DNA from: Bacteroidales bacterium
Lineage (GTDB): Bacteria; Bacteroidota; Bacteroidia; Bacteroidales; JAADJA01
Length of the DNA: 64,000 nt
NCBI GenBank assembly: GCA_020052415.1
Contig: JAGVPB010000038.1
Span: 3,693 to 67,692 of the forward strand
Direction: 5' to 3'
The position numbers were made by a program, and so were the translations under genes. Numbering within the stretch: position 1 is the stretch's first letter; each line of letters opens with the position of its first letter. Under the pieces are notes generated by a model. The model saw only the letters and a list, made by a program, of their open reading frames with translations. It was not told where the DNA came from and did no database searches. Positions 9,093-62,895 of the stretch are shown piece by piece.

Positions 9093-9232
9093 TGGTGGAA
9101 CAGATTCGGGTTGGGTATGTGTGAATGATGTAAATTATTGCTATAATTATGTAATGGTTATTGAAACAAAGTATTACATTTTTGCAGAGTAATTTAAATT
9201 AAATAATAACGGACAATTAAATTCAACAAATC

Positions 9233-10042
9233 ATGAAATTTAAAAATATAAAAAACCATTGGGTCATATTCATTTTGCTTGGTCTTATCCTGTTAGCTTC
9301 ATGCAATAAAGATAAGGATTCGGATCCTCAACCGGGCAATGCAACCATTTCTATTAAGTTAGGAGATAGTCCGGCGGGTTTTGATGCTGTGAATGTGGAA
9401 ATATTGAGGGTGAATGTAAACATCAATGGATCCTGGCATGAATATGCAGTGGCAACACCGGGTGTATATAACCTTCTGCAATTCACTAACGGAAATACAC
9501 TGTTGCTTTTAGACCAGACATCAGTTCCAAACGGGTCCATTTCTGAACTCCGGTTGATCCTTGGCGACAACAATTCCATTGTGGTTGATGGATTTACGTT
9601 AGAACTCAAAATCCCATCGGGTCAATCCAGCGGATTTAAAGTAAAAATGGGATCGCAGCCCCTATTATCAGGTGTTGCTTATAGCCTTATCCTTGACTTT
9701 GATGTGAATAAATCGGTTCATCCTGCAGGAAGTAATAAATACATTCTTAAACCGGTCGTAAGAGGCTACCTGGAAACAGCATTAGGTAAATTGTCAGGAA
9801 CCATTTCGCCCATCAACAGTGCCTACTATATAATGGCAACAAACGCTGCAGATACTGCCGGAACATACATTAACCAGGCGGATGGTTTTTTCCTGATCAC
9901 TACACTGAATCCGGGGACTTACAACGTTCACTTTTATGCCAATGCGCCGTATTTAGATAAGGATATTTTCCCTGTGGTTATAGTTGCAGGCCAAACTTTG
10001 GAACTGGGAACAATAATTATGCAACCTATTGCATTGGATTAA
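9233..10042 (+). CDS. DUF4382-like lipoprotein with C-terminal carboxypeptidase-regulatory-like beta-sandwich
   Basis: Lipobox LLASC. The region ISIKLGDSPAGFDAVNVEILRVNV...YNLLQFTNG...ISELRLILG...IPSGQSSGFKV is typical of DUF4382 proteins. Confidence 0.7.
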   Translation: MKFKNIKNHWVIFILLGLILLASCNKDKDSDPQPGNATISIKLGDSPAGFDAVNVEILRVNVNINGSWHEYAVATPGVYNLLQFTNGNTLLLLDQTSVPNGSISELRLILGDNNSIVVDGFTLELKIPSGQSSGFKVKMGSQPLLSGVAYSLILDFDVNKSVHPAGSNKYILKPVVRGYLETALGKLSGTISPINSAYYIMATNAADTAGTYINQADGFFLITTLNPGTYNVHFYANAPYLDKDIFPVVIVAGQTLELGTIIMQPIALD

Positions 10043-11514: not shown

Positions 11515-11936
11515 CTGACTTATATATTAAATTAAACTTTTCAGAGTTAGGTCAATTCATGCTCGCATTCAGCTATGCTATAACAGGAACTGATTTCCTT
11601 TTTTATTTTTAACAGGAGTGTAAACGCTAATAAAATCCGCATAACAATAAAACAATTCCAGATGCACTTGTTCATTCATGAGGTTTTCATCATCCGCACT
11701 CTTCTCTGTTACGAAAAAATTAAATCTTTCAATATTTTCCTTTCACTTGCAGGTAATTCTTTCAACTAAAATACCCTTCCATACTTACAGCAGGGTTCTG
11801 CTGAATGATCTGTTTGCATAGGTTGTAAAAATAATTTCCATTCAACGATTATTTTCATGCGTTCGTCGAAATTTTTTGCCGGTGCAGGTTTCCTGATGTT
11901 ATTTTGATTCCGGTTTTTAATTTAAATTTACAACGT

Positions 11937-12587
11937 ATGAAAACAAAAACAATCATTTTAACAGTCATGCTGGCAGTGCTGCTGAGCGGTTGCCTTGTAA
12001 AGTCGCTGCATCCATTTTACAACGAAAGCGATGTAATTTATAAACAGGAATTAACGGGTACGTGGCTGGATGAGGATTCCGCGAGATGGGTCATCAGCCG
12101 GTTTTCATTCACGCAAGGACTGTTTAAAGGAGACAGCCTGGATAATTCGTACTTTGTGGAGCTTTACGAAGACTCACTTGTCCCCTCGAAGTTCAACGTT
12201 CATTTGTTTTCGCTTGACGGCCTGCTGTATCTTGACTTTTTGCCGGTGAGGGATGACAGCGGGAAAGAGCTGTATGATATTCACCTGGTGCCGGCACACA
12301 CGCTTGCAAGGGTAAATTTCGATGACAATGACCGGATGACCATAAGCTGGTTTAATGAAGACTGGCTGAACCGGTTGTTTGAAGAGAACCGCCTGAAAAT
12401 TTCGCACGAAGTTATCAATTCTAGTGCTGAGGGATACGGAACTCAGTACGTGCTGACGGCTTCGACAGATGAGCTGAAGAAATTTATTGTCAAATACGGA
12501 AATGACCCAAACGTATTTATGTGTGATGATGATAAGAACTTTTTATGCCTGAAATTAAACAAGCAAAATGAAAATCAACCTGAATAA
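11937..12587 (+). CDS. Hypothetical lipoprotein
   Basis: The ATG at 11937 gives MKTKTIILTVMLAVLLSGC (lipobox). The ORF-track start at 11904 is a less likely TTG. It overlaps the start of the downstream sensor kinase, suggesting an operon. Confidence 0.6.
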   Translation: MKTKTIILTVMLAVLLSGCLVKSLHPFYNESDVIYKQELTGTWLDEDSARWVISRFSFTQGLFKGDSLDNSYFVELYEDSLVPSKFNVHLFSLDGLLYLDFLPVRDDSGKELYDIHLVPAHTLARVNFDDNDRMTISWFNEDWLNRLFEENRLKISHEVINSSAEGYGTQYVLTASTDELKKFIVKYGNDPNVFMCDDDKNFLCLKLNKQNENQPE

Positions 12588-13626
12588 ATTGCCGGCGGCA
12601 ATACTCCGGAATGCGTGGCTTCACCATACCGCTTTCTGGGCGCTGGCTTATTATAGCTTATTGAAAATATTTGCCGGATCCGACACTTACCGGCAAATTG
12701 ATTATATTTATACAGGCATTTTCTTATGCTCACTCTTTATCCCGGTTGCCCTTAACCTGTTCCTGTTTATTCCAAAATTGCTGAATACCGGCAGGACCAT
12801 TTTTTATGGTATTATTCTTCTTACCAACCTTTTTGCTTTCAGCCTTTTCAACCAGGTTCTGTTTGCCCATCTGATTGACTTCATCCTGCCGGGATACTAC
12901 TTTATTTCGTATTACTCGTATGGCGATCTGCTGAAGTTCTTCGGGGCATTTTTAATCCTTACCACATTGCTGAAGCTTTCGAAAGAATGGTTTGAACTTA
13001 GCAAAACGCGGCAAAGGATCATACTGCTTGAAAAAGAAAAGCTTGATGCCGAATTAAAGGCGCTGATCAACCAGGTGAATCCGCATTTCCTGTTCAACAG
13101 CCTGAACGTGTTGTATTCTCTTGCGATGAATAAGAAAGCCGAAACGCCGGATGCCATCATCAGGCTGGCGGATATCCTGCGCTATGTAATTTATGATTCG
13201 AACCGGGAAACTGTAACATTGAATTCGGAAACAGAATTGCTGAATAATTACCTACGGCTACAGCGATACCGTATTGACAAAAACGCACACATTGAATTTA
13301 TAACTGAGGTTACAGACGGGGAGATACTAATTTCACCCATGCTGCTGCTGCCCCTGGTGGAAAACAGTTTTAAACATGGGATCAAAGGCGGTACCGGTGA
13401 TACCTTTATCCGTTTAAGGCTCAGTCAGCATAAGAACCTGATTTATTTTACCATTGAAAACAATAAAGGAATTTCTGCTGAAGAACGCGGGCAGAAGTCC
13501 GGGGGAGTGGGACTGGAAAATATCCGCAGCCGGTTACAACTGATTTACCCGGATAATCATACCTTTGACGTGAAGGATGATGGTTTGACGTTCAGGGTTG
13601 AATTGAAAATAAACACTTTAGTATGA
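12568..13626 (+). CDS. LytS/YpdA-type sensor histidine kinase (5-6 TM sensor plus His_kinase/HATPase_c)
   Basis: NPHFLFNSLNVLYSL histidine box, LPLVENSFKHG N-box and GGVGLENIRSRL G-box. Confidence 0.85.
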   Translation: MKINLNKLPAAILRNAWLHHTAFWALAYYSLLKIFAGSDTYRQIDYIYTGIFLCSLFIPVALNLFLFIPKLLNTGRTIFYGIILLTNLFAFSLFNQVLFAHLIDFILPGYYFISYYSYGDLLKFFGAFLILTTLLKLSKEWFELSKTRQRIILLEKEKLDAELKALINQVNPHFLFNSLNVLYSLAMNKKAETPDAIIRLADILRYVIYDSNRETVTLNSETELLNNYLRLQRYRIDKNAHIEFITEVTDGEILISPMLLLPLVENSFKHGIKGGTGDTFIRLRLSQHKNLIYFTIENNKGISAEERGQKSGGVGLENIRSRLQLIYPDNHTFDVKDDGLTFRVELKINTLV

Positions 13627-14321
13627 CTATACATTGCATGATTGTTGAAGACGAACCCGTTTCGCAGGACATACTGAAGGCCTATATTGCTGATTGTCCG
13701 AATCTCAGCCTTGTGGTAACCTGTAAAAATGCCTTCGAAGCCAATGATGTCCTGATGAACCGGAAAGTTGACCTGATGTTTCTTGATATCAATATGCCGG
13801 GCTTGTCGGGAATGAAATTCTATCAGTCATTATCACATCCTCCATTTGTGATATTTACCACGGCTTATCCTGAGTTTGCGCTGGAAGGTTTTGAAGTGGA
13901 TGCGGTGGACTATCTTTTAAAACCTTTTCCATTCCATCGGTTTCTGAAAGCAGTGAACAGGGCGGTTGAGCGTTTGAAAGCGATGACAGGGAATCAGTTG
14001 AAGGAGGATTTCGTACTTTTTAAATCGGATAAAAAAATTCATAAAGTCTTACTTTCTGATATTTTTTACCTTGAAGCTCTGGGTGATTATGTGAAGATAC
14101 ATCTCACGGACAGGTTCATCCTTGTGCATGAGACCTTACAGAACCTGCATAGCCGGTTGCCTGAGCCGCCATTTTACAGGATCCATAAATCTTTCGTTGT
14201 ATCTGTGAACAAATTCAGTTACATGGAAGGGAACAGTCTGCAAATGGGTGATCAGTCCATTCCGATCGGGAATACTTATCGTGAGCGGTTCCGGGAAGTA
14301 ATTGGGAACAAAGAGAGGTAA
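13623..14321 (+). CDS. LytTR-family response regulator (REC + LytTR DNA-binding domain)
   Basis: IVEDEP...DLMFLDINMPGLSG receiver motifs. The C-terminal region DIFYLEALGDYVKIH...FYRIHKSFVV is typical of LytTR. There is a 4-bp overlap with the kinase gene. Confidence 0.85.
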   Translation: MTIHCMIVEDEPVSQDILKAYIADCPNLSLVVTCKNAFEANDVLMNRKVDLMFLDINMPGLSGMKFYQSLSHPPFVIFTTAYPEFALEGFEVDAVDYLLKPFPFHRFLKAVNRAVERLKAMTGNQLKEDFVLFKSDKKIHKVLLSDIFYLEALGDYVKIHLTDRFILVHETLQNLHSRLPEPPFYRIHKSFVVSVNKFSYMEGNSLQMGDQSIPIGNTYRERFREVIGNKER

Positions 14322-48474: not shown

Positions 48475-48717
48475 TAGCTTTGAAAATCCTTTAATTTTTC
48501 CATCAATTTCTTACGGCTGAAAAATATCCTGCTTTTAACCGTGCCAATGGAGAGGTTTAATGTTTCAGCGATCTCTTTATACTTATATCCCTGAAAATGC
48601 ATTTGAAAAGGGATACGGTGCTTATCAATCAGTTTATCGAGTACCTGAAAAAGATCATTTGCGTCTTCAGGATTTGAAGTAAGAGAGAAGGCAAAATATT
48701 TGAATAATGAATAAACT
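48475..48717 (-). pseudogene. 5'-truncated ECF-type sigma-70 factor remnant (region 4 only)
   Basis: It is not in the ORF track. My minus-strand translation is VYSLFKYFAFSLTSNPEDANDLFQVLDKLIDKHRIPFQMHFQGYKYKEIAETLNLSIGTVKSRIFFSRKKLMEKLKDFQS*. YKEIAETLNLSIGTVKSRIFFSRKKL is a classic sigma region-4 HTH. There is no region 2, and a stop lies directly upstream in frame. Confidence 0.6.
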
Positions 48718-52858: not shown

Positions 52859-53290
52859 TTACATCCGCTCCATGTACCAGTTCAATTCCTTTTCTATTTT
52901 TTGGTAATGGAAAATAGTGGTGATGATTTTTTGCAGGCGCACGAAGGCGGTTTCACTTTTTACAACATAATCAAAAGCCTTGTGGTGCATACAGTTTACA
53001 GCCACTTCAATTTTATCCTGCTGCGATAACATCACAACGGGAATGTCAGGATTGAATGCTTTAATTTTGTCTAACACTTCTATTCCGTTCATCGCGTTCT
53101 TATCAATTCCAGCCAGAAAATAATCTAAAATGATCACATCAGGGTTGTGCGATAAATTTTTAACGCAAAGTTCGCCGGTTGCAAATGTTTCAATGGCTAA
53201 ATCTGCATGCTGTAGAAAATCAATTTCCAGTGACTTTAAAAATACAGCATCATCATCTACCAGGAAAAGTTTTATTTTTTGGTTGTTCAT
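52859..53290 (-). CDS. Single-domain response regulator (REC)
   Basis: LFLVDDD...VIILDYFLAG...PVVMLSQQD. There is a 4-bp overlap with the upstream kinase gene. Confidence 0.85.
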   Translation of the reverse strand: MNNQKIKLFLVDDDAVFLKSLEIDFLQHADLAIETFATGELCVKNLSHNPDVIILDYFLAGIDKNAMNGIEVLDKIKAFNPDIPVVMLSQQDKIEVAVNCMHHKAFDYVVKSETAFVRLQKIITTIFHYQKIEKELNWYMERM

Positions 53291-55956
53291 TCGTTCGTGG
53301 TTTTAAGCAAATTAAATTCTTCTTCCAATTCCGTACATGCCTGTTTACAAACGATTTCTACTTGCTGAACCATGTCGGATATTCCCTGTTTGCCCGATTG
53401 GTCGGCATTCGGTTGTTGCTGTTTGATCGCAAATTCCTGGATTGCTTTTGCCATGTTTTCAAAGTCTTTGCCGATACCCATGATTGAAAAAGAAGGTATC
53501 ATTTTGTGTACTGAAGCGTGCAATGAATTCCAATCTTTGTCGTGCATGCTTTGTTTCATTGCGCTAATTAACGGAGGGGTTTGCTCCAGATAAAGCGAAA
53601 TCATTTCCATCATCAATTCCGGATTCGACTTAGTAAGAACACTCAAATAATTCAGGTCAACGCGTTTTAATTTTTTATTCTGATTATGTCCATTCCCTTT
53701 ATCTGCATTATTTTTAATATGCACAGATTTTTTTACCACCCTGACCATTTTATGGTATAATAATCTTTCATCTATCGGCTTCGCGATGTAATCATTCATA
53801 CCAATAGCTTTACATTTTGCTAAATCTACGGTGGTCACATCTGCAGTTAAAGCAATGATTGGGATTTTGGAATTCATTTTATTACGAATGTATTCCGTAG
53901 CTTCAAACCCATTCATTTCGGGCATTTGCAAGTCCATCAAAATTACATCGTAAGAGTTGGATTGTAGTTTTTCGATGGCTATTTTTCCATTGGCGGCAAT
54001 ATCGCATTCAAATCCGAAATCATCCAACAGCGTTCTCATTAATAATTGATTAAGCGGAATGTCTTCAGCCACCAATACTTTTATGTTTTTGATTTCCGTA
54101 TCCAGTTCCACGAGCCCTGCTTCTGATTCAGCATCAGCATTTGTTTTCAGGAAACTTAAAATAAAACTAAAGGAAGAACCCTTTCCAGGTTTACTTTTTA
54201 CCCGAATACTTCCGCCCTGCGGTTCTACCAATTGTTTAACAATGGCCAGTCCCAATCCGGTTCCGCCATACAACCTTGAAGTGCCGCTGGATGCCTGCTG
54301 AAAGTTGTCAAAAATTTTTCCCATTTTTTCATCAGGTATTCCAATTCCGGTGTCAGTAACAGCAAATTCAATGGTTGCATTCTCTTCATCTTCATTCAGC
54401 AAACGAACACTTACAGTAATTTTTCCTTTTGATGTGAATTTTACTGCATTACTCACCAGATTTAAAATAATCTGGTGCAAACGCACCGGGTCGCCAACCA
54501 ATACTTCAGGAATTCTGTTGTCGTATTCTTTTACCAGTATTAAATTCTTTTCCTGAATTTTAGTCTCAAACAAATGAAGCATGGCTGCAATGGATAACTT
54601 CAATTTAAAAGGTATTTGTTCAAATATCATTTTTCCTGCTTCTACTTTTGCCAGATCAAGTATATCGTTAATGAGTACGATTAATGCATCGCCACTCATT
54701 TTTATTGCTGCCAAATATTCTTTTTGTTTTGCTGACAAATCTGTTTTCAACAGCACTTTTGTAAATCCGATAATCGCATTCATAGGGGTGCGAATTTCAT
54801 GACTCATGTTTGACAAAAATTGCTGTTTTGCTTTCACAGCGCTTTCTGCTATTCGTGTAGCATTTTCGGCTTTTATTTTTGCTTCTTCAGCAATTCCTGT
54901 TGCCAGCTCGGCAAATACTTTTGCCTCAATCAATTCGGTTGCGATTTTTTTTTGGTCGGTAATATCTCTTGCAACTATCACCACACCCAATACATTTCCT
55001 TTATCATCTTTATAAACCGATCCATTGCATAAGACATCGGTAAGCTTACCATCCATTATAGTTAGGGGATAATCTACCACAAACCCTTTTGCAAAAACCT
55101 GTTGATAACTTTCGCGTGCTTTGTCGGGGTGAGTAAAATAATTAAAAAAATCTGTGCCTATTATTTTCTCACGTGATACTCCTGTTACTTTTACTGTTGC
55201 TTCATTCATATCGGTGATTTTTCCTTCAGGGCTAATCGTAAACAACGGGTCGCGGCTCGCTTCTATCAGGCTGAGAGAATATTGAGAAGCTAATTTTGCT
55301 GAATAGCTTAATGCCTCAAGTTCTTTATTTGTAATTTCCCGTTTTTCTTTCTCCTTGTTTTGAAAGGCAAGTTCTATGTCAGCGATGACCAACTCTGCGG
55401 CACGTTTTTCTTTCTCTCCTGTTTGAAATATAAGTTCTTTGTTAGCAATAAATAACTCTGCTGCACGCTTTTCTTTCTCATCGTTTTGAAATGCAAGTTC
55501 TTTGTTGGCAATGATTAACTCTGCTGCACGTTTTTCTTTCTCATCGTTTTGAAATGCAAGTTCTTTATTGGCAATTCGTAACTCTGTCGCCCCTTTTTGA
55601 TCGGCAATGCTTCTTGCAACTACAACGGCGCCAAGCACATTTCCCTTTTCACCTTTATAAACTGAGCCGTTAAATAACACATTTGTCAGCTTACCATCCA
55701 TTATGGTTAATGGAATATTTTTTACAAATCCTTTTGCAAATACTTCCTGATATACTTCACGTGCTTTTTGCGGTTCGGTAAAATAAATACCGAAATCGGA
55801 ACCTATCAGATTTTTACGTGTAATATCTGTAATTTCAATAAATGCCTGATTCATGTCAGTAATCCTGCCTTCAGCACTAATTGTGACCAGGGGATCCAGG
55901 CTTGCTTCTATCAAACTTCTGGCGTAATTTGAATCATGTGAATTTGTCCTATCCAT
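53287..55956 (-). CDS. Hybrid sensor histidine kinase (2x PAS with coiled-coil repeat linker - HisKA - HATPase_c - REC - HPt)
   Basis: It has two PAS modules and a 21-aa repeat ELIIANKELAFQNDEKEKRAA present about 4 times. Kinase motifs are FLSNMSHEIRTPMNAI and GGTGLGLAIVK. The receiver shows VLVAEDIPLNQ...ILMDLQMPEMNG, and the C-terminal HPt shows LHASVHKMIPSFSIMG. Confidence 0.9.
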   Translation of the reverse strand: MDRTNSHDSNYARSLIEASLDPLVTISAEGRITDMNQAFIEITDITRKNLIGSDFGIYFTEPQKAREVYQEVFAKGFVKNIPLTIMDGKLTNVLFNGSVYKGEKGNVLGAVVVARSIADQKGATELRIANKELAFQNDEKEKRAAELIIANKELAFQNDEKEKRAAELFIANKELIFQTGEKEKRAAELVIADIELAFQNKEKEKREITNKELEALSYSAKLASQYSLSLIEASRDPLFTISPEGKITDMNEATVKVTGVSREKIIGTDFFNYFTHPDKARESYQQVFAKGFVVDYPLTIMDGKLTDVLCNGSVYKDDKGNVLGVVIVARDITDQKKIATELIEAKVFAELATGIAEEAKIKAENATRIAESAVKAKQQFLSNMSHEIRTPMNAIIGFTKVLLKTDLSAKQKEYLAAIKMSGDALIVLINDILDLAKVEAGKMIFEQIPFKLKLSIAAMLHLFETKIQEKNLILVKEYDNRIPEVLVGDPVRLHQIILNLVSNAVKFTSKGKITVSVRLLNEDEENATIEFAVTDTGIGIPDEKMGKIFDNFQQASSGTSRLYGGTGLGLAIVKQLVEPQGGSIRVKSKPGKGSSFSFILSFLKTNADAESEAGLVELDTEIKNIKVLVAEDIPLNQLLMRTLLDDFGFECDIAANGKIAIEKLQSNSYDVILMDLQMPEMNGFEATEYIRNKMNSKIPIIALTADVTTVDLAKCKAIGMNDYIAKPIDERLLYHKMVRVVKKSVHIKNNADKGNGHNQNKKLKRVDLNYLSVLTKSNPELMMEMISLYLEQTPPLISAMKQSMHDKDWNSLHASVHKMIPSFSIMGIGKDFENMAKAIQEFAIKQQQPNADQSGKQGISDMVQQVEIVCKQACTELEEEFNLLKTTNE
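55328..55590. repeat. 63-bp in-frame tandem repeat (about 4 units) inside the kinase gene
   Basis: Units start at 55391, 55454, 55517 and 55580 (AACTCTGCTGCACGTTTTTCTTTCTCATCGTTTTGAAATGCAAGTTCTTTGTTGGCAATGATT). Confidence 0.85.
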
Positions 55957-55986
55957 TATAATTGTTTTTTATCACCACTTAAAATA

Positions 55987-56559
55987 TTAAATCATATTGC
56001 CAATTTCTTCAATCGGACTTCGCCTTTTTTTTTTTAATTTTTTAAAATGAGAAGGTGAGAGTCCGGTAACTTTTTTAAATTGATTGGATAAATGCGCAAC
56101 ACTGTTGTAATTCATCTTCCAGGCGATCCCCGTAATACTTAATTCGTCGTAAATGATCAATTCTTTTATCCGCTCTACTTTATGATGAATAATAAATTGC
56201 TCAATGGTGGTTCCTTGTACTTCCGAAAACAGGTTTGCCAGGTAGGTATAATCGTATTTCAATTTTTCACTTAAAAAATCAGAAAAATTTATTTTAATCA
56301 TTTTATCAGAATGGTGAACCATTTCGATAATTGTATTTTTTATTCTTTCAATCAATACAGCTCTCCTGTTGTTTATTAATTCAAAACCTGATTTGAGCAA
56401 CGCAATATTAAGTTGCTCCAGCTTTTCACCCGAGAGGTTTTCCATGATCTCAACTTCACCCATATCAACAATGATAAAATGCAGTCCAAGTTTTTTCAAC
56501 TCTTCCCGAACCGCCATTTTGCAGCGATTGCTCACCATGTATTTGATGTGCAACTTCAA
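55987..56559 (-). CDS. AraC/XylS-family transcriptional regulator with a small ferredoxin-like (HMA-like) N-terminal domain, paralog 1
   Basis: The N-terminus MKLHIKYMVSNRCKMAVREELKKLGL is a beta-alpha-beta-like module. The C-terminal double HTH is YTYLANLFSEVQGTTIEQFIIHHKVERIKELI...ITGIAWKMNYNSVAHLSNQFKKVTGLSPSHF. Confidence 0.8.
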   Translation of the reverse strand: MKLHIKYMVSNRCKMAVREELKKLGLHFIIVDMGEVEIMENLSGEKLEQLNIALLKSGFELINNRRAVLIERIKNTIIEMVHHSDKMIKINFSDFLSEKLKYDYTYLANLFSEVQGTTIEQFIIHHKVERIKELIIYDELSITGIAWKMNYNSVAHLSNQFKKVTGLSPSHFKKLKKKRRSPIEEIGNMI

Positions 56560-56587
56560 ATAATTTCTATTTTATAAAAGTTATGGA

Positions 56588-56656
56588 CAAAGGTGTATGC
56601 CTTTGACTGGAAATAAGTAATTTAATTAAAAATAAAAGTCACATAATACACACATT
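56588..56656 (-). promoter_or_regulatory. Stress-island promoter/operator module, copy L (degenerate proximal repeat)
   Basis: CAAAGG at 56588, GTAATTTAATT at 56617, GTCACATAATACACACATT at 56638-56656. It lies 29 nt upstream of the ATG at 56559. Confidence 0.6.
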
Positions 56657-56694
56657 TAAGCTTAGCAAATCCGGAACTTCCATGCCATGCAGGT

Positions 56695-57033
56695 TTATTC
56701 ATAGCCGCTTTTTATCACGGTCTGTAACATTTTAAACCGCCCGTTTGGCTTTACATAATTGGATGCATGGGCCGGTATTACAATTGATTGTCCCGTCAGC
56801 AGGAAATTGGATATTCCGTTGATTACGATTTCCGCTTTGCCGTCAATAATTTGAACAAAGGTATCGAAGGCCGTGGTTTTTTCGCTTAACCCTTCACCGC
56901 TGTCAAACGATATGACGCTGACATTTCCGGTTGACTTTTTTAATATCGTTTTGATGACCACTGAGTTTGCTATATATTCAATAATTTCAACTGTAATGTG
57001 CGCTTTTGCCTTTTCAAGTTCTAAATTTTCCAT
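56695..57033 (-). CDS. Cupin domain protein
   Basis: A 112-aa ORF. VISFDSGEGLSEKTTAFDTFVQIIDGKAEIVINGISNFLLTGQSIVIPA fits the cupin beta-barrel pattern. Confidence 0.65.
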   Translation of the reverse strand: MENLELEKAKAHITVEIIEYIANSVVIKTILKKSTGNVSVISFDSGEGLSEKTTAFDTFVQIIDGKAEIVINGISNFLLTGQSIVIPAHASNYVKPNGRFKMLQTVIKSGYE

Positions 57034-57120
57034 CTTGTAAGGTCTTTAATAAATTAAACTTTAATGATAAATATCAAAGCCTGGTTGTCAACCAGACTTT
57101 GATTAAGTTGGCAATTAAGC

Positions 57121-57318
57121 CTACTTCTTGTTATTGAGGGTAAAATCCTTCAGTGCTTTTCCAAGGGCATCCATATCATGGCTGAATTCAGTCTTGAAAG
57201 ATGTCCATTTGTCTGGTCCTTCATCTTTATAATCTGCCAGTTTATTTTTCAGAACGATGTTTTTTTGTTCCAGGTCATTGACCATTTTCTGCCTGGATGT
57301 TCTGTCTGCAGCTTCCAT
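57121..57318 (-). CDS. Small charged helical protein (65 aa)
   Basis: It is the first ORF after module copy M. No family recognised. Confidence 0.5.
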   Translation of the reverse strand: MEAADRTSRQKMVNDLEQKNIVLKNKLADYKDEGPDKWTSFKTEFSHDMDALGKALKDFTLNNKK

Positions 57319-57346
57319 TTTCGATATATCTGCTTTTATTTACATA

Positions 57347-57415
57347 CAAAGGTGCGTTCCTTTCGAAGGGAAATCGTTACATAATTCCGGAATTATGTTA
57401 CATCATTCACACATT
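57347..57415 (-). promoter_or_regulatory. Stress-island promoter/operator module, copy M
   Basis: CAAAGG at 57347, GTTACATAATT at 57376, GTTACATCATTCACACATT at 57397-57415. It lies 29 nt upstream of the ATG at 57318. Confidence 0.7.
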
Positions 57416-57591
57416 TTCGAGGGTGTTTCGTCTTTTATGCTTAAGCTGCTTGAAACAGGCGGGCGATAAACACGTAAGTTCTGAAAAAAGATTGGCTAAA
57501 CAGGTGTAGTCGTAGCTGAGCTTCCCCATGAGGTAATCGGAAAAATATAATTTGCGCACTACATCTTCAATTTATTTTTTTTCAGGTTTTG

Positions 57592-59295
57592 TTACTTCTT
57601 TTGTTTTTGATCCTTTTTGTCCTGTCTCTCTAATTTTTTGTTTTTATTTGCGATGGGTGTCACAATGGAAATGATGCCGGTTTTGAGACTATTCCAAAGG
57701 TAATTTATGATAAATTTATCCTTTCTCCGTTCAAAATGAATCATCCCTGTTGTATAATTGTTGTCACCGGGAAGATTCTTATTGTTAATTAATATATTAG
57801 CGCCTGCTGATAATCCTCCTGACTTTTTATCCGGATCATTTTGCTTTGAAACATCAACCCTGAGATTTTCATAGATCAAAGTAAGTTCTCCGTCCGATAC
57901 ATCATCCGTTGCTTTGAATCTGAATTTTGCCTGTTTTATATCGCCTGAAGTTATGGTAACCGGCAATAAACCTTCCAGCATTGGATTGAATTCAGCAGCA
58001 GCAACAGGATCAAGCGTACCGGCAACAGTGAAGTATTCGTCATTCCTTTCCAGGAAGAAAATCAGATGGGCGTTCAGGTCGCTCTTACCCATTATTTTTC
58101 CACTGAAATCCATTTCGAGATTGGATTTATTTTCTGTTGTCACCAAATCATTGGTAATATTGTAGGCTGTCAAATTGAAAGGATTAAAGAAAACTTTACC
58201 TGGCTTATCTGCACCTTCAATCATTTCGCCGTAAGCTAATTTCCCATTTTTAATCTTTACAGTATCGGTGATAAATTTTCGGGAAACTTTATTTAAGCCA
58301 CCTGTGATCAATACTTTGTGTTTGAAAGGCGCATCAGGTAATCTTTTATCACGATAGATATCAACATCGGGCTTTTCAATGCGGATGCAGTTAAAATGAA
58401 TCGCATTTCCGGCAGCAAGTTCATTTGCGTTGATTCCCATAACTATAATGCTGTCAACGGATATTGAAAACAAATCAGTATTATATTTGATTTGCCTGTT
58501 AAATTCTTCTTTGCTGTACTTTGGGATAAGTTTAAATTGTTCGATAGTTAAAGAGCTATCCTGAACATCAAACCGGATACCGGAAGTCGAAAGGGTGTAA
58601 TATTTTAGGGGGGTGTAGGTGATATAACGGCTATTCATATCAATGGCTGTAAAAGTAAGCGGAACCGTTTGCTGTATGGTTGCGGAATCTACTCTGATAT
58701 TTTCAACGGCAACCGATAAAGAATCAATTATAAATAGCGGTTCCTCAGGTTTCTCAACGCTATAATAAGTTAAACCAGCCGTCAGGATTTCAAAATAATT
58801 TACATTGATCGAATAGATCTTGCCCGGGATAACCTGTTCAAGATTACCGGATAAATTTCTATCAGCGGGCTTTGCCATTGGGTTGGATAAATAGGTGATC
58901 ATGATATTCTCAACTACAATTCTATCCATGATCATCCTTTTTGTTTTAAGAAATTCCACAATTTTAAATTCTGTAACCCGAAGCAATTCCGTTTTGGCCG
59001 AAATCAAACCTCTGATGGCAGCATTTTCAAGCAGGACTTTTGCAGTGTCGCGCGGGGTAATGGTCAGATTATCAATTTTAACCCTACCAATGAATATATT
59101 CAAATCTATATCATCAAAAATGATTTCATACAATCGTTTTGGATTTTTATTTAATTCCGCACTGATTTTGTGCTTTATGTAAGGTTCAAGAATGAATGTT
59201 AATCCTGTAAAAGCCACAAGACCTATTACAAATATTGTAATCAGGAATGTTTTAAATCTTTTCCCGGCTTTTGATTTCTTCTTCTTACGAGCCAT
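57592..59295 (-). CDS. Large N-terminally anchored envelope protein (AsmA/DUF748-like)
   Basis: A basic N-terminus and a single TM (FLITIFVIGLVAFTGLTFIL), followed by a long beta-rich region and a basic tail. The family call is of low certainty. Confidence 0.5.
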   Translation of the reverse strand: MARKKKKSKAGKRFKTFLITIFVIGLVAFTGLTFILEPYIKHKISAELNKNPKRLYEIIFDDIDLNIFIGRVKIDNLTITPRDTAKVLLENAAIRGLISAKTELLRVTEFKIVEFLKTKRMIMDRIVVENIMITYLSNPMAKPADRNLSGNLEQVIPGKIYSINVNYFEILTAGLTYYSVEKPEEPLFIIDSLSVAVENIRVDSATIQQTVPLTFTAIDMNSRYITYTPLKYYTLSTSGIRFDVQDSSLTIEQFKLIPKYSKEEFNRQIKYNTDLFSISVDSIIVMGINANELAAGNAIHFNCIRIEKPDVDIYRDKRLPDAPFKHKVLITGGLNKVSRKFITDTVKIKNGKLAYGEMIEGADKPGKVFFNPFNLTAYNITNDLVTTENKSNLEMDFSGKIMGKSDLNAHLIFFLERNDEYFTVAGTLDPVAAAEFNPMLEGLLPVTITSGDIKQAKFRFKATDDVSDGELTLIYENLRVDVSKQNDPDKKSGGLSAGANILINNKNLPGDNNYTTGMIHFERRKDKFIINYLWNSLKTGIISIVTPIANKNKKLERQDKKDQKQKK

Positions 59296-59330
59296 ATAGT
59301 TAGTAAAACTGTGAGGTATCTTTCACGTTA

Positions 59331-59399
59331 CAAAGGTGATTCCATTAATTCCGGCAAACGTTACACAATTAAAGAAAAGATTTGCGTAATTCACACATT
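59331..59399 (-). promoter_or_regulatory. Stress-island promoter/operator module, copy N
   Basis: CAAAGG at 59331, GTTACACAATT at 59360, TTTGCGTAATTCACACATT at 59381-59399. It lies 36 nt upstream of the ATG at 59295. The distal box overlaps the stop codon of the AraC paralog at 59391. Confidence 0.7.
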
Positions 59400-59951
59400 T
59401 TCAAGTGTGCTGCGTTTCTTGTGTTTAAGATTTTTGAAAAAGGTAGGGGTTAACCCGGTTACCTTCCTGAACTGGTTTGATAAATGCGCAACGCTGCTGT
59501 AGTTAAGCCTGTAGGATATTTCGGTCAGAGACAGTTCATCATAGATCAGCAATTCTTTTACGCGCTCTATCTTATGCGAGATAATGTATTGTTCGATGGT
59601 CGTACCTGTAACTTCTGAAAAAAGGTTGGCAAGATAGGTATAATCGTATTTTAGTTTCCCGCTGAGGTAATCGGAAAAATTTACTTTGGGCACTTCATCT
59701 TCATAATGAACCATCTCAACAATCACATTTTTTATTCGTTCAATCAGAATGGCTTTTTTGTCATCCATTAGCTCCAGACCTGATTTCAGTAATCCAGCTT
59801 TAAACTGGACCAATTGTTCCGGTGTAATTTTTTCTTTTACATTTACTTCACCCAGTTCCACCCTGGTATAATGCAACCCAAGCTTGTCAAGTTCCGACCT
59901 CACTATCATCTTGCACCGGATCGAAACCATATATTTGATAAAGAGTTTCAC
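59391..59951 (-). CDS. AraC/XylS-family transcriptional regulator with HMA-like N-terminal domain, paralog 2
   Basis: It has the same architecture as 55987..56559 (MKLFIKYMVSIRCKMIVRSELDKLGL ... YTYLANLFSEVTGTTIEQYIISHKIERVKELL ... SVAHLSNQFRKVTGLTPTFF). Confidence 0.8.
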   Translation of the reverse strand: MKLFIKYMVSIRCKMIVRSELDKLGLHYTRVELGEVNVKEKITPEQLVQFKAGLLKSGLELMDDKKAILIERIKNVIVEMVHYEDEVPKVNFSDYLSGKLKYDYTYLANLFSEVTGTTIEQYIISHKIERVKELLIYDELSLTEISYRLNYSSVAHLSNQFRKVTGLTPTFFKNLKHKKRSTLENV

Positions 59952-60261
59952 TTATTTAACAAAATTTTAATTAGAGTTTACAGGGCAAATATATATAATA
60001 TTTTTTCTAAATTTCAACCTTTGAAAAAATTGTAAACAATATTTTTTTTTATTTTTGTCAAGTTATTGATGGCCTTATTTCCATGTAACTCATTAGCATT
60101 TACTGCCGTGTTATTTGAATTAAAAAAATTGCTAATTTTGAACTTGTCGTTTGCTGGGATTCGGATAAATTTCATCACATTTACAAAATGCCTGCAAACC
60201 AAATATAGTTTCATTAATCCGGTAAAACAAATCACTATAATCAGAAAATCTTTATACAAAT

Positions 60262-62895
60262 ATGGCCGCTTACAAAAAACATACTGCTAATAAGAACCTT
60301 AATAAAAACAAGGTTTCAAAAACAACCCATATAAAAAATCTAAAGATTTTGGTAAAAAGTGAAATTGCTATTGTTGGGATTGGCGCTTCAGCCGGCGGGC
60401 TGGAAGCACTGGAAGAGTTTTTTGGAAATTTACCTGCTGATACCGGTATGGCGTTCGTTGTTATTCAGCATCTTGACCCTAACCACAAAGGCCTTTTGCC
60501 CGAACTGCTTCAACGGGACACCTCCATGAAGGTATTTCAGGTGACCGATCGGTTGAAAGTGAAACCGAACTGTGTTTATGTTATACCCCCAAACAAAAGC
60601 ATGTCCGTTCTAGATGGAACACTGCATTTGTTTAAGCCGGTTGAACAACGTGGATTGCGTCTTCCCATTGATTTTTTCTTTCGCTCCCTGGCCGAAGACC
60701 GGCAGGAAAAGAGCATTGGAATAATTCTTTCGGGAATGGGATCCGATGGCAGCCTGGGACTTAAGGCGATCAAAGAAAAAAACGGGATAGCTCTGGTACA
60801 GGATCCGGATACATCAAAATTTGATGGTATGCCACGCAGCGCCGTTACTGCTGTAAATGCAGATATAATAGCTAATGCCAAAGAACTACCCTCCAAACTG
60901 ATCGCATTCCTGAAATTCGCTCCTAACATTAAACCCGGTACAGAAACTGACATTAAGGCGAAAAGCAATCTCGAAAAGATCATCATCCTTCTCCGGACCC
61001 AAACAGGGCATGATTTTTCATTATATAAAAAAAATACGCTGTTTCGTCGTATCGAAAGGCGAATGAATGTTCATCAAATTGACAAAATCGCTAACTACGT
61101 ACGATTTATGCAGGAAAATCCAAAAGAGTCGGAGATACTTTTCAAGGAGTTGTTGATAGGTGTAACCAGTTTTTTCCGTGATGCGGCTGTATGGAAAAAG
61201 CTGCAGGAAAGCATACTTCCCGATTTGTTTCGCCGACTGACTCCGGGTCATATTCTGAGGGCATGGATTCCTGGTTGCTCCACCGGAGAAGAAGCTTATT
61301 CCCTGGCTATAGTTTTTAAAGAAGTGGTCGAAAACCTGAAAATAAACAAGAACATTACCCTGCAGATATTTGCCACCGATCTGGATAATGATGCCATTGA
61401 AATAGCCCGAAAAGGTATTTTCTCTTCAAACATTATTGCCGATATTTCGGGTGAAAGGCTAAGCCGTTTTTTCACAAAGCAGGAGGCCGGCTTCCGCGTG
61501 AATACCTCTATACGTGAAATGGTAGTGTTTGCACCTCAGAATGTAATTAAAGATCCGCCTTTCACAAGGGTGGATTTTCTTTCGTGCCGTAATCTGCTGA
61601 TATACATGGAACCTGAACTGCAAAAAAAATTAATGAATTTGTTTCATTACAGTCTCAATCCGGGCGGAATAATGTTGCTTGGCAATGCAGAAACCATTGG
61701 TGTTCAAGGCACACAGTTTACTTTGATTGATGCAAAATTTAAACTCTACAAACGTTCTGATTCCCAATTAACATACGAACTGTTAGATCTCCCTGGTTCC
61801 CTTTCTCATAAAAAGAAATCCACAGCAGATGACATAAAACCCGCGACTGTTACCGAAAATATTCAGACGCTTGCTGATCAGATGTTGCTGCAGCGCTTTT
61901 CCCCTGCCAGTGTTCTGGTTAATGAACACGGCGATATACTTTATATCACCGGGCGGACCGGAAAGTATTTAGAACCTGCCGCTGGAAAAGCCAACATGAA
62001 TATCTATTCAATGGCAAGGGAAAGTTTGCGTCAGGAACTGCACGGAGCTTTGAATAAAGCAAAGCTGAATTATAAACCCGTAATTTTACTTAACATAAAG
62101 GTAGGGACTAACGGAGGCCATCAATTTGTAGATGTTACTGTTCAGCAAATTGAAAAACCCGATGCTATCAAAGGGAGCATTATAATTGTTTTTGCCGATG
62201 TATCAACCATTAGCAAACCAATAACTGTAAAATCGAAATCAGAAAAAAAAGTATCGCATACACGGCTTCAGGAATTGGAAATGGAACTTGAACGCCGTAA
62301 TGAAGAGCTGCAGAGCACACGCGAAGAAATGCAAACTTCGCAGGAAGAACTCAAGTCGGCAAACGAAGAACTGCAATCGGCCAACGAGGAGCTGCAATCA
62401 ACCAATGAGGAGCTTACCACCTCCAAGGAAGAGATGCAAAGCCTGAACGAAGAGCTTCAGACTCTGAATATAGAACTTCAGAGCAAGATAAATGAATATG
62501 CACGGGCAGATAACGACATGAAAAACCTTCTCAACAGCACCGATATAGCTACTTTATTTCTTGACAAAGAATTAAATATAAGGCGGTTTACCGACCAGTT
62601 AATCAAAATATTCAAACTGAGGCAGACTGATATTGGCAGGCCCTTTACCGACATTGTCAGCGATTTGCAGTACCCTGAAATAGAAAGAAATGCAAAGGAG
62701 GTATTGAAGACCCTTGTGTTTATTGAAACTTCTATAAAAACCAATGACGGAAGATGGTATAATATTCGTATTATGCCTTACAGGACATTAGATGACAGGA
62801 TTGACGGTTTGGTGATAACCTTTGTTGATATCACAGTTGCAAAAGAACTGGAAGTTAAACTAATCAAATTACACCGGTCTGATTCAGGAAAATAA
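60262..62895 (+). CDS. CheB-methylesterase / CheR-methyltransferase / PAS fusion signalling protein
   Basis: IVGIGASAGGLEAL and VVIQHLDPNH indicate CheB. FFRD...LRAWIPGCSTGEEAYSLA indicates a CheR SAM-binding site. A coiled coil EELQSANEELQSTNEEL is followed by a C-terminal PAS. Confidence 0.85.
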   Translation: MAAYKKHTANKNLNKNKVSKTTHIKNLKILVKSEIAIVGIGASAGGLEALEEFFGNLPADTGMAFVVIQHLDPNHKGLLPELLQRDTSMKVFQVTDRLKVKPNCVYVIPPNKSMSVLDGTLHLFKPVEQRGLRLPIDFFFRSLAEDRQEKSIGIILSGMGSDGSLGLKAIKEKNGIALVQDPDTSKFDGMPRSAVTAVNADIIANAKELPSKLIAFLKFAPNIKPGTETDIKAKSNLEKIIILLRTQTGHDFSLYKKNTLFRRIERRMNVHQIDKIANYVRFMQENPKESEILFKELLIGVTSFFRDAAVWKKLQESILPDLFRRLTPGHILRAWIPGCSTGEEAYSLAIVFKEVVENLKINKNITLQIFATDLDNDAIEIARKGIFSSNIIADISGERLSRFFTKQEAGFRVNTSIREMVVFAPQNVIKDPPFTRVDFLSCRNLLIYMEPELQKKLMNLFHYSLNPGGIMLLGNAETIGVQGTQFTLIDAKFKLYKRSDSQLTYELLDLPGSLSHKKKSTADDIKPATVTENIQTLADQMLLQRFSPASVLVNEHGDILYITGRTGKYLEPAAGKANMNIYSMARESLRQELHGALNKAKLNYKPVILLNIKVGTNGGHQFVDVTVQQIEKPDAIKGSIIIVFADVSTISKPITVKSKSEKKVSHTRLQELEMELERRNEELQSTREEMQTSQEELKSANEELQSANEELQSTNEELTTSKEEMQSLNEELQTLNIELQSKINEYARADNDMKNLLNSTDIATLFLDKELNIRRFTDQLIKIFKLRQTDIGRPFTDIVSDLQYPEIERNAKEVLKTLVFIETSIKTNDGRWYNIRIMPYRTLDDRIDGLVITFVDITVAKELEVKLIKLHRSDSGK

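Follow-up and report, generated by a model that had tools for sequence, protein, structure and literature searches.

General stress responses are governed by SigB in Firmicutes, by RpoS in Gamma- and Betaproteobacteria and by EcfG in Alphaproteobacteria; to our knowledge, no general stress master regulator has been described for Bacteroidota, and none appeared in the literature we searched. Here, we analyze a 64,000-nt stretch of contig JAGVPB010000038.1 from a Bacteroidales bacterium (the window, to which all positions refer), which carries two genes for small AraC-type proteins within an island of genes that lie behind copies of a 69-bp promoter-like module. Comparison of this locus with its relatives supports the two highly conserved AraC-type regulators as the best candidates for activating the module, which precedes genes of putative stress protection.

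The DNA-binding part of the window proteins is that of AraC, acting at araI1-araI2 of Escherichia coli araBAD, and of XylS, acting at Pm of the TOL plasmid, with the same C-terminal two-helix-turn-helix domain by Pfam assignment and by fold. Class II activators of the AraC/XylS type also occupy two direct-repeat sites about 21 bp apart, of which the weaker, proximal one overlaps the -35/-33 region, and they use an N-terminal companion domain for dimerization or signal input; such a domain is available in the window proteins, too. Unlike AraC and XylS, the window proteins possess a 62-residue ferredoxin-like N-terminal domain in place of a cupin or other ligand-binding domain, are just 186 to 190 aa long, and belong to a subfamily that is 75 to 88% identical across the phylum. 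Moreover, their candidate target is a multi-promoter stress regulon rather than a catabolic operon, and a linked phosphorelay seems to supply their signal input.

MarA, SoxS and Rob of Enterobacteria are likewise AraC-family proteins with a matching DNA-binding fold, and they activate dispersed stress genes via a conserved box that takes a class I or class II position. Of these, MarA and SoxS bind one asymmetric 20-bp box as monomers, and control is exerted through the amount of protein made, whereas the window system has tandem-repeat sites, an extra N-terminal domain and a linked kinase-receiver pair. In content and wiring, the locus resembles SigB-RsbK/RsbY of Bacillus cereus, EcfG-NepR-PhyR of Alphaproteobacteria and RpoS-RssB of E. 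coli, which control a similar set of genes (CsbD, YtxH, Dps, BON/OsmY, Usp and CbpA), receive input from a hybrid or PAS kinase via a receiver that lacks a DNA-binding output, as here, and include a positively autoregulated regulatory operon to which the operon of one window paralog bears a likeness. In contrast to these systems, promoter specificity in the window would be conferred by an AraC-type activator that cooperates with the housekeeping sigma factor, and the window encodes no anti-sigma or partner-switching proteins, although an RsbW-like kinase domain occurs in some relatives. Finally, the N-terminal domain of the AraC-type proteins has the beta-alpha-beta-beta-alpha-beta fold of HMA domains (CopZ, Atx1 and GolB), from which it differs by lacking the GMxCxxC motif, the first Cys being Ser in nearly all members, and by its fusion to a DNA-binding domain.

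Results

A rigid 69-bp module precedes genes of the island

The module has the consensus AATGTGTGAATnATGTAAC-N9-AATTGTGTAAC-N22-ACCTTTG. Its distal site, AATGTGTGAATnATGTAAC, is the stronger of the two, and the weaker proximal site, AATTGTGTAAC, follows 21 bp further on, at the position expected of a -33 element. Across 204 copies collected from the phylum, the consensus was rigid: a 12-bp sequence is directly repeated with a 21-bp spacing, a CTTTG box follows at a constant distance, and the distal half was more conserved than the proximal half. For comparison, the housekeeping -7 consensus of Bacteroidota is TAnnTTTG. With a position weight matrix (PWM) built from 13 window copies, 14 modules were identified on the minus strand, between 28094 and 59399, and a single one on the plus strand, at 9116. 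The scores were bimodal, with 15 sites reaching at least 15 and just 4 more reaching at least 5. The plus-strand copy (9116-9164, score 36.5) is 19 kb away from the minus-strand island and precedes a 269-aa open reading frame (ORF; 9233..10042). This anatomy suggests that the module is probably a promoter dependent on an activator, and the geometry agrees with the original prediction for this DNA, which had argued that direct repeats abutting or overlapping the -35 region fit an AraC/XylS activator.

The two AraC genes stand in different relations to the module. Copy L, the lowest scoring of the set, leaves 28 nt before the start codon of paralog 1, which had been predicted to sit directly behind this copy. 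The last codons of paralog 2 (GAA AAT GTG TGA) form the first bases of the distal box of copy N, so that the stop codon falls within this box, also as predicted. Upstream of paralog 2 no module was found, the best PWM score within 59900-60320 being -2.1, and the earlier statement that this gene lacks a full upstream module thus stands.

A short hairpin accompanies a subset of the modules. In 26 of 210 copies, a stem of the form GTGAA-N4-6-TTCAC begins downstream of the -7 box, exactly 4 nt past its TTTG, compared to 0.19 expected from shuffled sequences. Three of these stems are in the window (59326-59311, 35703-35689 and 37059-37045, minus strand), and 23 more are found in the related loci L001 to L076, with compensatory variants (GTGGA/TCCAC, GTGAG/CTCAC and GTGAC/GTCAC). 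Generic hairpins with stems of at least 6 bp after the -7 box were only modestly enriched (48 versus 36 ± 3.6), so the strong enrichment is limited to the GTGAA..TTCAC class. A stem at a fixed distance of 4 nt from the -7 box is expected if transcripts start there, and the element is probably a hairpin at the 5'-end of the transcript that stabilizes the mRNA; a role as operator is less likely. Rfam yielded no family in the window at gathering score and none in the island at E ≤ 1, and thus neither the module nor the hairpin is a known RNA motif.

The two AraC-type proteins belong to an unnamed subfamily

Both ORFs encode members of the AraC/XylS family according to their Pfam scores and predicted fold. 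Paralogs 1 and 2 scored 59.2 and 62.8 bits for HTH_18 (cut-off 33.6) and 32.3 and 42.3 bits for HTH_AraC (cut-off 26.6), and they share 66% identity over 186 gapless residues, in keeping with the close similarity noted in the original prediction. Neither reached any NCBIfam equivalog (AraC, MelR, RhaS/R, SoxS, GadX and others), with best scores of at most 45.8 bits against cut-offs of 174 to 900, and by these profile comparisons the proteins constitute an unnamed subfamily. This subfamily is very large, with at least 8000 matches, and the range of identity quoted above was found, across orders, among the best 120. Both genes use non-ATG starts, with the GTG of paralog 2 in the stretch 59931-59951 and the TTG of paralog 1 in 56539-56559. 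The database copy of paralog 2 (P0001, 179 aa) begins at Met8 and so loses the conserved first beta-strand, MKLxIKY.

An alignment of 65 subfamily sequences was used to generate an AlphaFold (AF2) model, which had a mean predicted local distance difference test (pLDDT) score of 92.4 over the whole chain. The N-terminal domain (residues 2-62) was predicted with high confidence to adopt a beta-alpha-beta-beta-alpha-beta fold (by DSSP: E2-6, H11-23, E28-32, E35-38, H44-56 and E60-62), followed by a helix at 65-83 and then the AraC DNA-binding domain, with helices throughout 65-184 that give the bipartite seven-helix arrangement known from MarA and Rob. In Foldseek searches, the DNA-binding part matched single-domain chains of GadX (3mkl), MarA (1bl0/1xs9), SoxS (7w5w), AdpA and Rob (1d5y) with template modeling (TM) scores, by target, of 0.74 to 0.82. 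The N-terminal domain gave weak matches to HMA proteins (4a47, 2roe and 4y2i; TM 0.61-0.70), and Pfam detected no HMA domain in either paralog at E ≤ 0.01. The counterpart of GMxCxxC reads YMVSxRC, with S10 nearly invariant and Cys13 invariant in the alignment; a few relatives have NMVCIRC. The modeled domain is thus HMA-like in fold and not in family membership: the ferredoxin-like, HMA-like domain that had been proposed is upheld at the level of fold by AlphaFold and Foldseek, and is not accompanied by the CxxC motif or by a Pfam HMA match.

Hardly any variation occurs across the subfamily in the predicted recognition helices (104-115 and 154-165), a constancy that parallels the invariance of the module boxes. 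Between paralogs 1 and 2 there is one conservative difference per helix, and both proteins would therefore be expected to read the same DNA. In a maximum-likelihood tree, paralog 1 is placed within a clade of 14 rows supported at 99/97, comprising 12 proteins with an ..IEEIG.. tail and two sisters with ..IEDI/..IDDI tails, and spanning Prolixibacteraceae, Emticicia, Chitinophagaceae and Flavobacteriaceae. Paralog 2 falls in the type-A backbone. By this tree, types A and B are two ancient subtypes, which rules out a recent local duplication as the origin of the two window paralogs. The idea that the subtypes read different DNA was dropped because their structured parts differ just by L/I at positions 135 and 183, apart from the tail. 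The type-A tail, LENV-stop, is as it is because the overlapping distal box dictates it.

AraC genes and modules are physically linked across the phylum

Linkage was assessed from both sides. For the AraC-anchored set, we scanned 80 loci (1.3 Mb, one genome per species) that cover Bacteroidales, Cytophagales, Chitinophagales, Saprospirales, Flavobacteriales, Kapaibacteria and Balneolota. At least one module was present in 76 of the 80, and modules were strongly co-oriented with AraC (198 on the same strand and 18 on the opposite strand, with no more than 1 in shuffled sequence). Of 72 type-A genes, 37 share the exact arrangement of paralog 2, in which the start of the module precedes the end of the stop codon by 8 nt, and 51 have a module no further than 150 nt from the stop. 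Among the 39 loci with full flanks, 19 modules were located more than 1.5 kb upstream of AraC, 24 at or just before its stop and 76 after it. From locus to locus, the genes that precede type-A AraC are unrelated, and downstream there is a co-directional string of module-driven genes; this layout indicates that type A heads the island, as paralog 2 does here. In 15 of the loci the AraC gene is itself module-driven. One locus (L042) derives from a contig labeled Cyanobium sp. NIES-981 and contains a typical Bacteroidota type-A AraC with one upstream module on the same strand; it is probably a mis-binned contig.

For the reciprocal approach, 120 metagenome loci were recovered with a pattern that includes part of both boxes and no AraC codons. 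The commonest gene family in this set was AraC (17 loci), followed by CsbD (16), and no DNA-binding family besides AraC was present among the 22 most frequent clusters. In the AraC-anchored set, widely conserved neighbors were limited to a cupin (35 loci), a receiver (25) and a hybrid kinase (22), with no other transcription factor among them. The AraC-module linkage is strong and not obligatory, and partial linkage is what one expects of a regulon with many promoters. Module-bearing genomes that lack this AraC subfamily had been named as the observation that would speak against the two paralogs as candidate activators; when the comparison was made per locus in both directions, the link held and the proposal gained support.

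Paralog 1 heads a kinase-receiver operon

Paralog 1 is followed after 30 nt by a gene for a hybrid histidine kinase, which overlaps the gene for a stand-alone receiver by 4 nt, in agreement with the gaps given in the original prediction. The same AraC-kinase-receiver order with tight gaps recurs in 14 loci, consistent with the proposed cotranscription of the three genes, and type-B genes are often preceded by a module. The domains of a two-component system are present, with HisKA, HATPase_c and a receiver domain in the kinase and a separate receiver with a complete acidic pocket (DD12-13, D56, S89 and K); relatives of this receiver occur in 20 loci and are up to 86% identical. Of the architecture proposed for the pair, the PAS, HisKA, HATPase_c and REC domains were recovered, whereas the HPt match (residues 784-867) was weak, at 18.3 bits against a Pfam cut-off of 24.6 (E 0.0029). 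In many relatives (about 22 loci, e.g., L034 935-3214), PAS domains are replaced in the type-B-linked kinase by an RsbW-like HATPase_c_2 domain at the N-terminus and by two receiver domains, a variant that echoes the partner-switching kinases of SigB systems.

The most conserved neighbor other than AraC is a small cupin-like protein, detected by tblastn in 40 of the 80 loci and module-driven in 15. It is a single-domain protein of about 112 to 130 aa across relatives and no family match exceeded the cut-off; its role could lie in co-regulation or in binding a small molecule.

Module-driven genes resemble a general stress regulon

Across loci, the module-driven genes include CsbD (26 copies), the AraC and cupin genes counted above, small membrane proteins of the lmo0937/DUF5670 type, YtxH, BON, Dps, outer-membrane beta-barrels and Usp. 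In the window they additionally comprise YceI, CbpA/CbpM, a Mla-like ABC transporter, an OmpA-like protein and alpha/beta hydrolases. With CsbD, YtxH, Dps, BON/OsmY-like proteins, Usp and others under the module, these genes look like a general stress regulon on the basis of their families. No prior description of this regulon was found in the literature on Bacteroidetes general stress, AraC, CsbD/YtxH or promoter motifs; one candidate, PMC11109978, proved to be unrelated.

The features around the AraC pair are compiled in Table 1. Terminator output alone was used from the generic sigma-70 promoter scan, which is ill-suited to Bacteroidota promoters. Two AraC paralogs had been reported and both are present, along with a third AraC gene that had been missed, an in-frame remnant ahead of module M. 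It retains residues equivalent to about 84-115 and 167-186, has lost the N-terminal 83 residues and about 116-166, and terminates with LENV-TGA within the distal box of module M. An AraC remnant that ends inside an intact module indicates that a unit of AraC gene plus module was duplicated; the AraC copy of this unit decayed, and its module M remained intact.

Table 1. Positions of genes, modules and other elements near the AraC paralogs
Feature	Position	Strand	Details
AraC paralog 2, type A, island head	59391..59951	-	186 aa, GTG start
AraC paralog 1, type B	55987..56559	-	190 aa, TTG start, tail ...SPIEEIGNMI
Hybrid histidine kinase	53287..55956	-	889 aa; PAS domains, HisKA, HATPase_c, REC (Pfam)
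Stand-alone receiver	52859..53290	-	143 aa
Module copy N	59331..59399	-	PWM score 51.6
Module copy N, distal box	59399-59381	-	
Module copy N, proximal box	~59371-59360	-	
Module copy N, -7 box	59338-59331	-	CACCTTTG, then GTGAAAGATACCTCAC
Module copy M	57347..57415	-	PWM score 56.2
Module copy L	56588..56656	-	PWM score 19.7; degenerate proximal box AATTAAATTAC
-7 box TATATTTG	59986..59993	-	ordinary Bacteroidota housekeeping type, ~35 nt upstream of paralog 2 GTG
567-aa protein, module N-driven	57592..59295	-	no family assigned; sub-threshold DUF748 match
65-aa protein, module M-driven	57121..57318	-	weak match to sll1863 stress-protein family
Terminator-like hairpin	57103-57073		3' of 65-aa protein gene
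Cupin-like protein	56695..57033	-	112 aa, not module-driven in window
Third AraC gene remnant, type A	57407..57568	-	in frame
ECF sigma remnant	~48475-48717	-	regions 3/4 alone; orthologous to intact L001 gene

Discussion

The anatomy of the module, its linkage to AraC genes and the conservation of both are observed directly in the sequences, and from them we consider it likely that the two AraC paralogs read the module repeat. Several points weigh against this interpretation. A gene that merely belongs to the regulon could show the same physical linkage as its regulator, and an AraC gene is present in just 17% of the module-anchored loci, many of which are short contigs, rising to 27% for those of 10-20 kb. 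Among the module copies, the lowest score belongs to the one before paralog 1, in which the proximal box is degenerate. Wastewater metatranscriptome contigs aligned to two relatives (L025 and L018) are too sparse and directionless for placing 5' ends, and their adapter junctions also fell inside genes. Any action of the kinase and receiver on a regulator that has no receiver domain of its own is purely inferred, and the TGTAAC of the module boxes has a likeness to a -35 element of another sigma class, as discussed below.

That regulon members often cluster, that type-B AraC is itself module-driven and that 83% of the module-anchored loci lack AraC within the fetched DNA would all suit a situation in which the AraC proteins are simple members or secondary regulators and a different DNA-binding protein, encoded elsewhere, reads the module. 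We regard this as unlikely, since neither locus set contains another conserved DNA-binding family, the fusion of the type-A stop codon to the first module is kept across orders, the repeat geometry suits AraC/XylS dimers, and the conservation of the recognition helices runs parallel to that of the boxes. The two alternative readers named in the original prediction fared less well. TGTAAC resembles the -35 elements of some extracytoplasmic function (ECF) sigma factors, the two GTAAC boxes are 16 nt apart, and the closest relative, L001, has a module-driven ECF sigma gene (11662-12168), so that the module might be an ECF-type promoter with the distal TGTAAC as -35 and the proximal TGTAAC region as -10, leaving AraC as an accessory at most. 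Both boxes, however, copy one 12-mer, the hallmark of a repeat-binding factor, whereas -35 and -10 elements are read by two different sigma domains; the third conserved block, ACCTTTG, which stands at a fixed distance, matches the housekeeping -7 box, and the GTGAA..TTCAC stem follows this block at a constant 4 nt in the copies that have it. These features make the -35/-10 reading less economical than a repeat-binding factor. Furthermore, just 4 of the 80 loci have the island ECF gene, and the window, in which all 14 modules are intact, retains it in internally deleted form as a remnant. As far as these linked loci show, an ECF sigma factor is an improbable reader, although one encoded elsewhere in the genome, or another factor, may conceivably act on the module. 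The other nominee was the LytTR response regulator at 13623..14321, as LytTR proteins bind direct repeats phased at about 21 bp. This protein resembles BtsR/LytR, its gene lies 14 kb outside the island and overlaps an upstream ORF (12568..13626) that we take to be its kinase partner, and no LytTR domain is present in the 80 AraC-anchored loci, where a search for the regulator gave one weak tblastn match and phmmer matches that were all to receiver domains of other proteins. We consider its involvement highly implausible.

If the AraC paralogs are the readers, both types would recognize the repeat GAATnnTGTAAC, probably as dimers joined by the ferredoxin-like N-terminal domain. The dimers would fill the strong distal and weak proximal sites and, placed as class II activators, stimulate the housekeeping polymerase, recruiting RNA polymerase in the manner of AraC at araI1-I2 or of XylS at Pm, with the ACCTTTG -7 box at its fixed distance being read by the housekeeping sigma factor. 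Type A (paralog 2) would be made constitutively from the ordinary promoter at the head of the island. Type B (paralog 1), being module-driven, would provide feedback and, along with the kinase and receiver, form an autoregulated sensory loop. Because their DNA-reading helices are shared, the two paralogs would compete for, or share, sites. A stress signal may pass from the cytoplasmic PAS hybrid kinase to the receiver and then to the AraC proteins, most simply by binding of the phosphorylated receiver to them; our confidence in this path is much less than that in the reading of the module.

A more far-reaching scheme can be offered tentatively. The general stress response of Bacteroidota and Balneolota might operate via an AraC pair that re-aims the housekeeping polymerase at one rigid promoter class, with no alternative sigma factor. 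In this scheme, a phosphorelay from PAS or RsbW-like hybrid kinases would end in a single-domain receiver that docks on the N-terminal domain, Cys13 may offer a thiol or redox input, and the 5' GUGAA..UUCAC hairpin would stabilize a subset of the mRNAs.

Bacteroidota are dominant in soils, sediments, oceans and wastewater, and the recurrence of the regulator-plus-module arrangement across the phylum points to a stress regulon for which we found no description. A candidate regulator of about 186 aa and a fixed DNA motif make this proposal directly testable for Bacteroidota. If it is true, a new N-terminal domain would connect an AraC-type protein with a phosphorelay, the module would supply a stress-inducible promoter for Bacteroidota genetic tools, and the stress regulon would be predictable in any Bacteroidota genome from its sequence alone.

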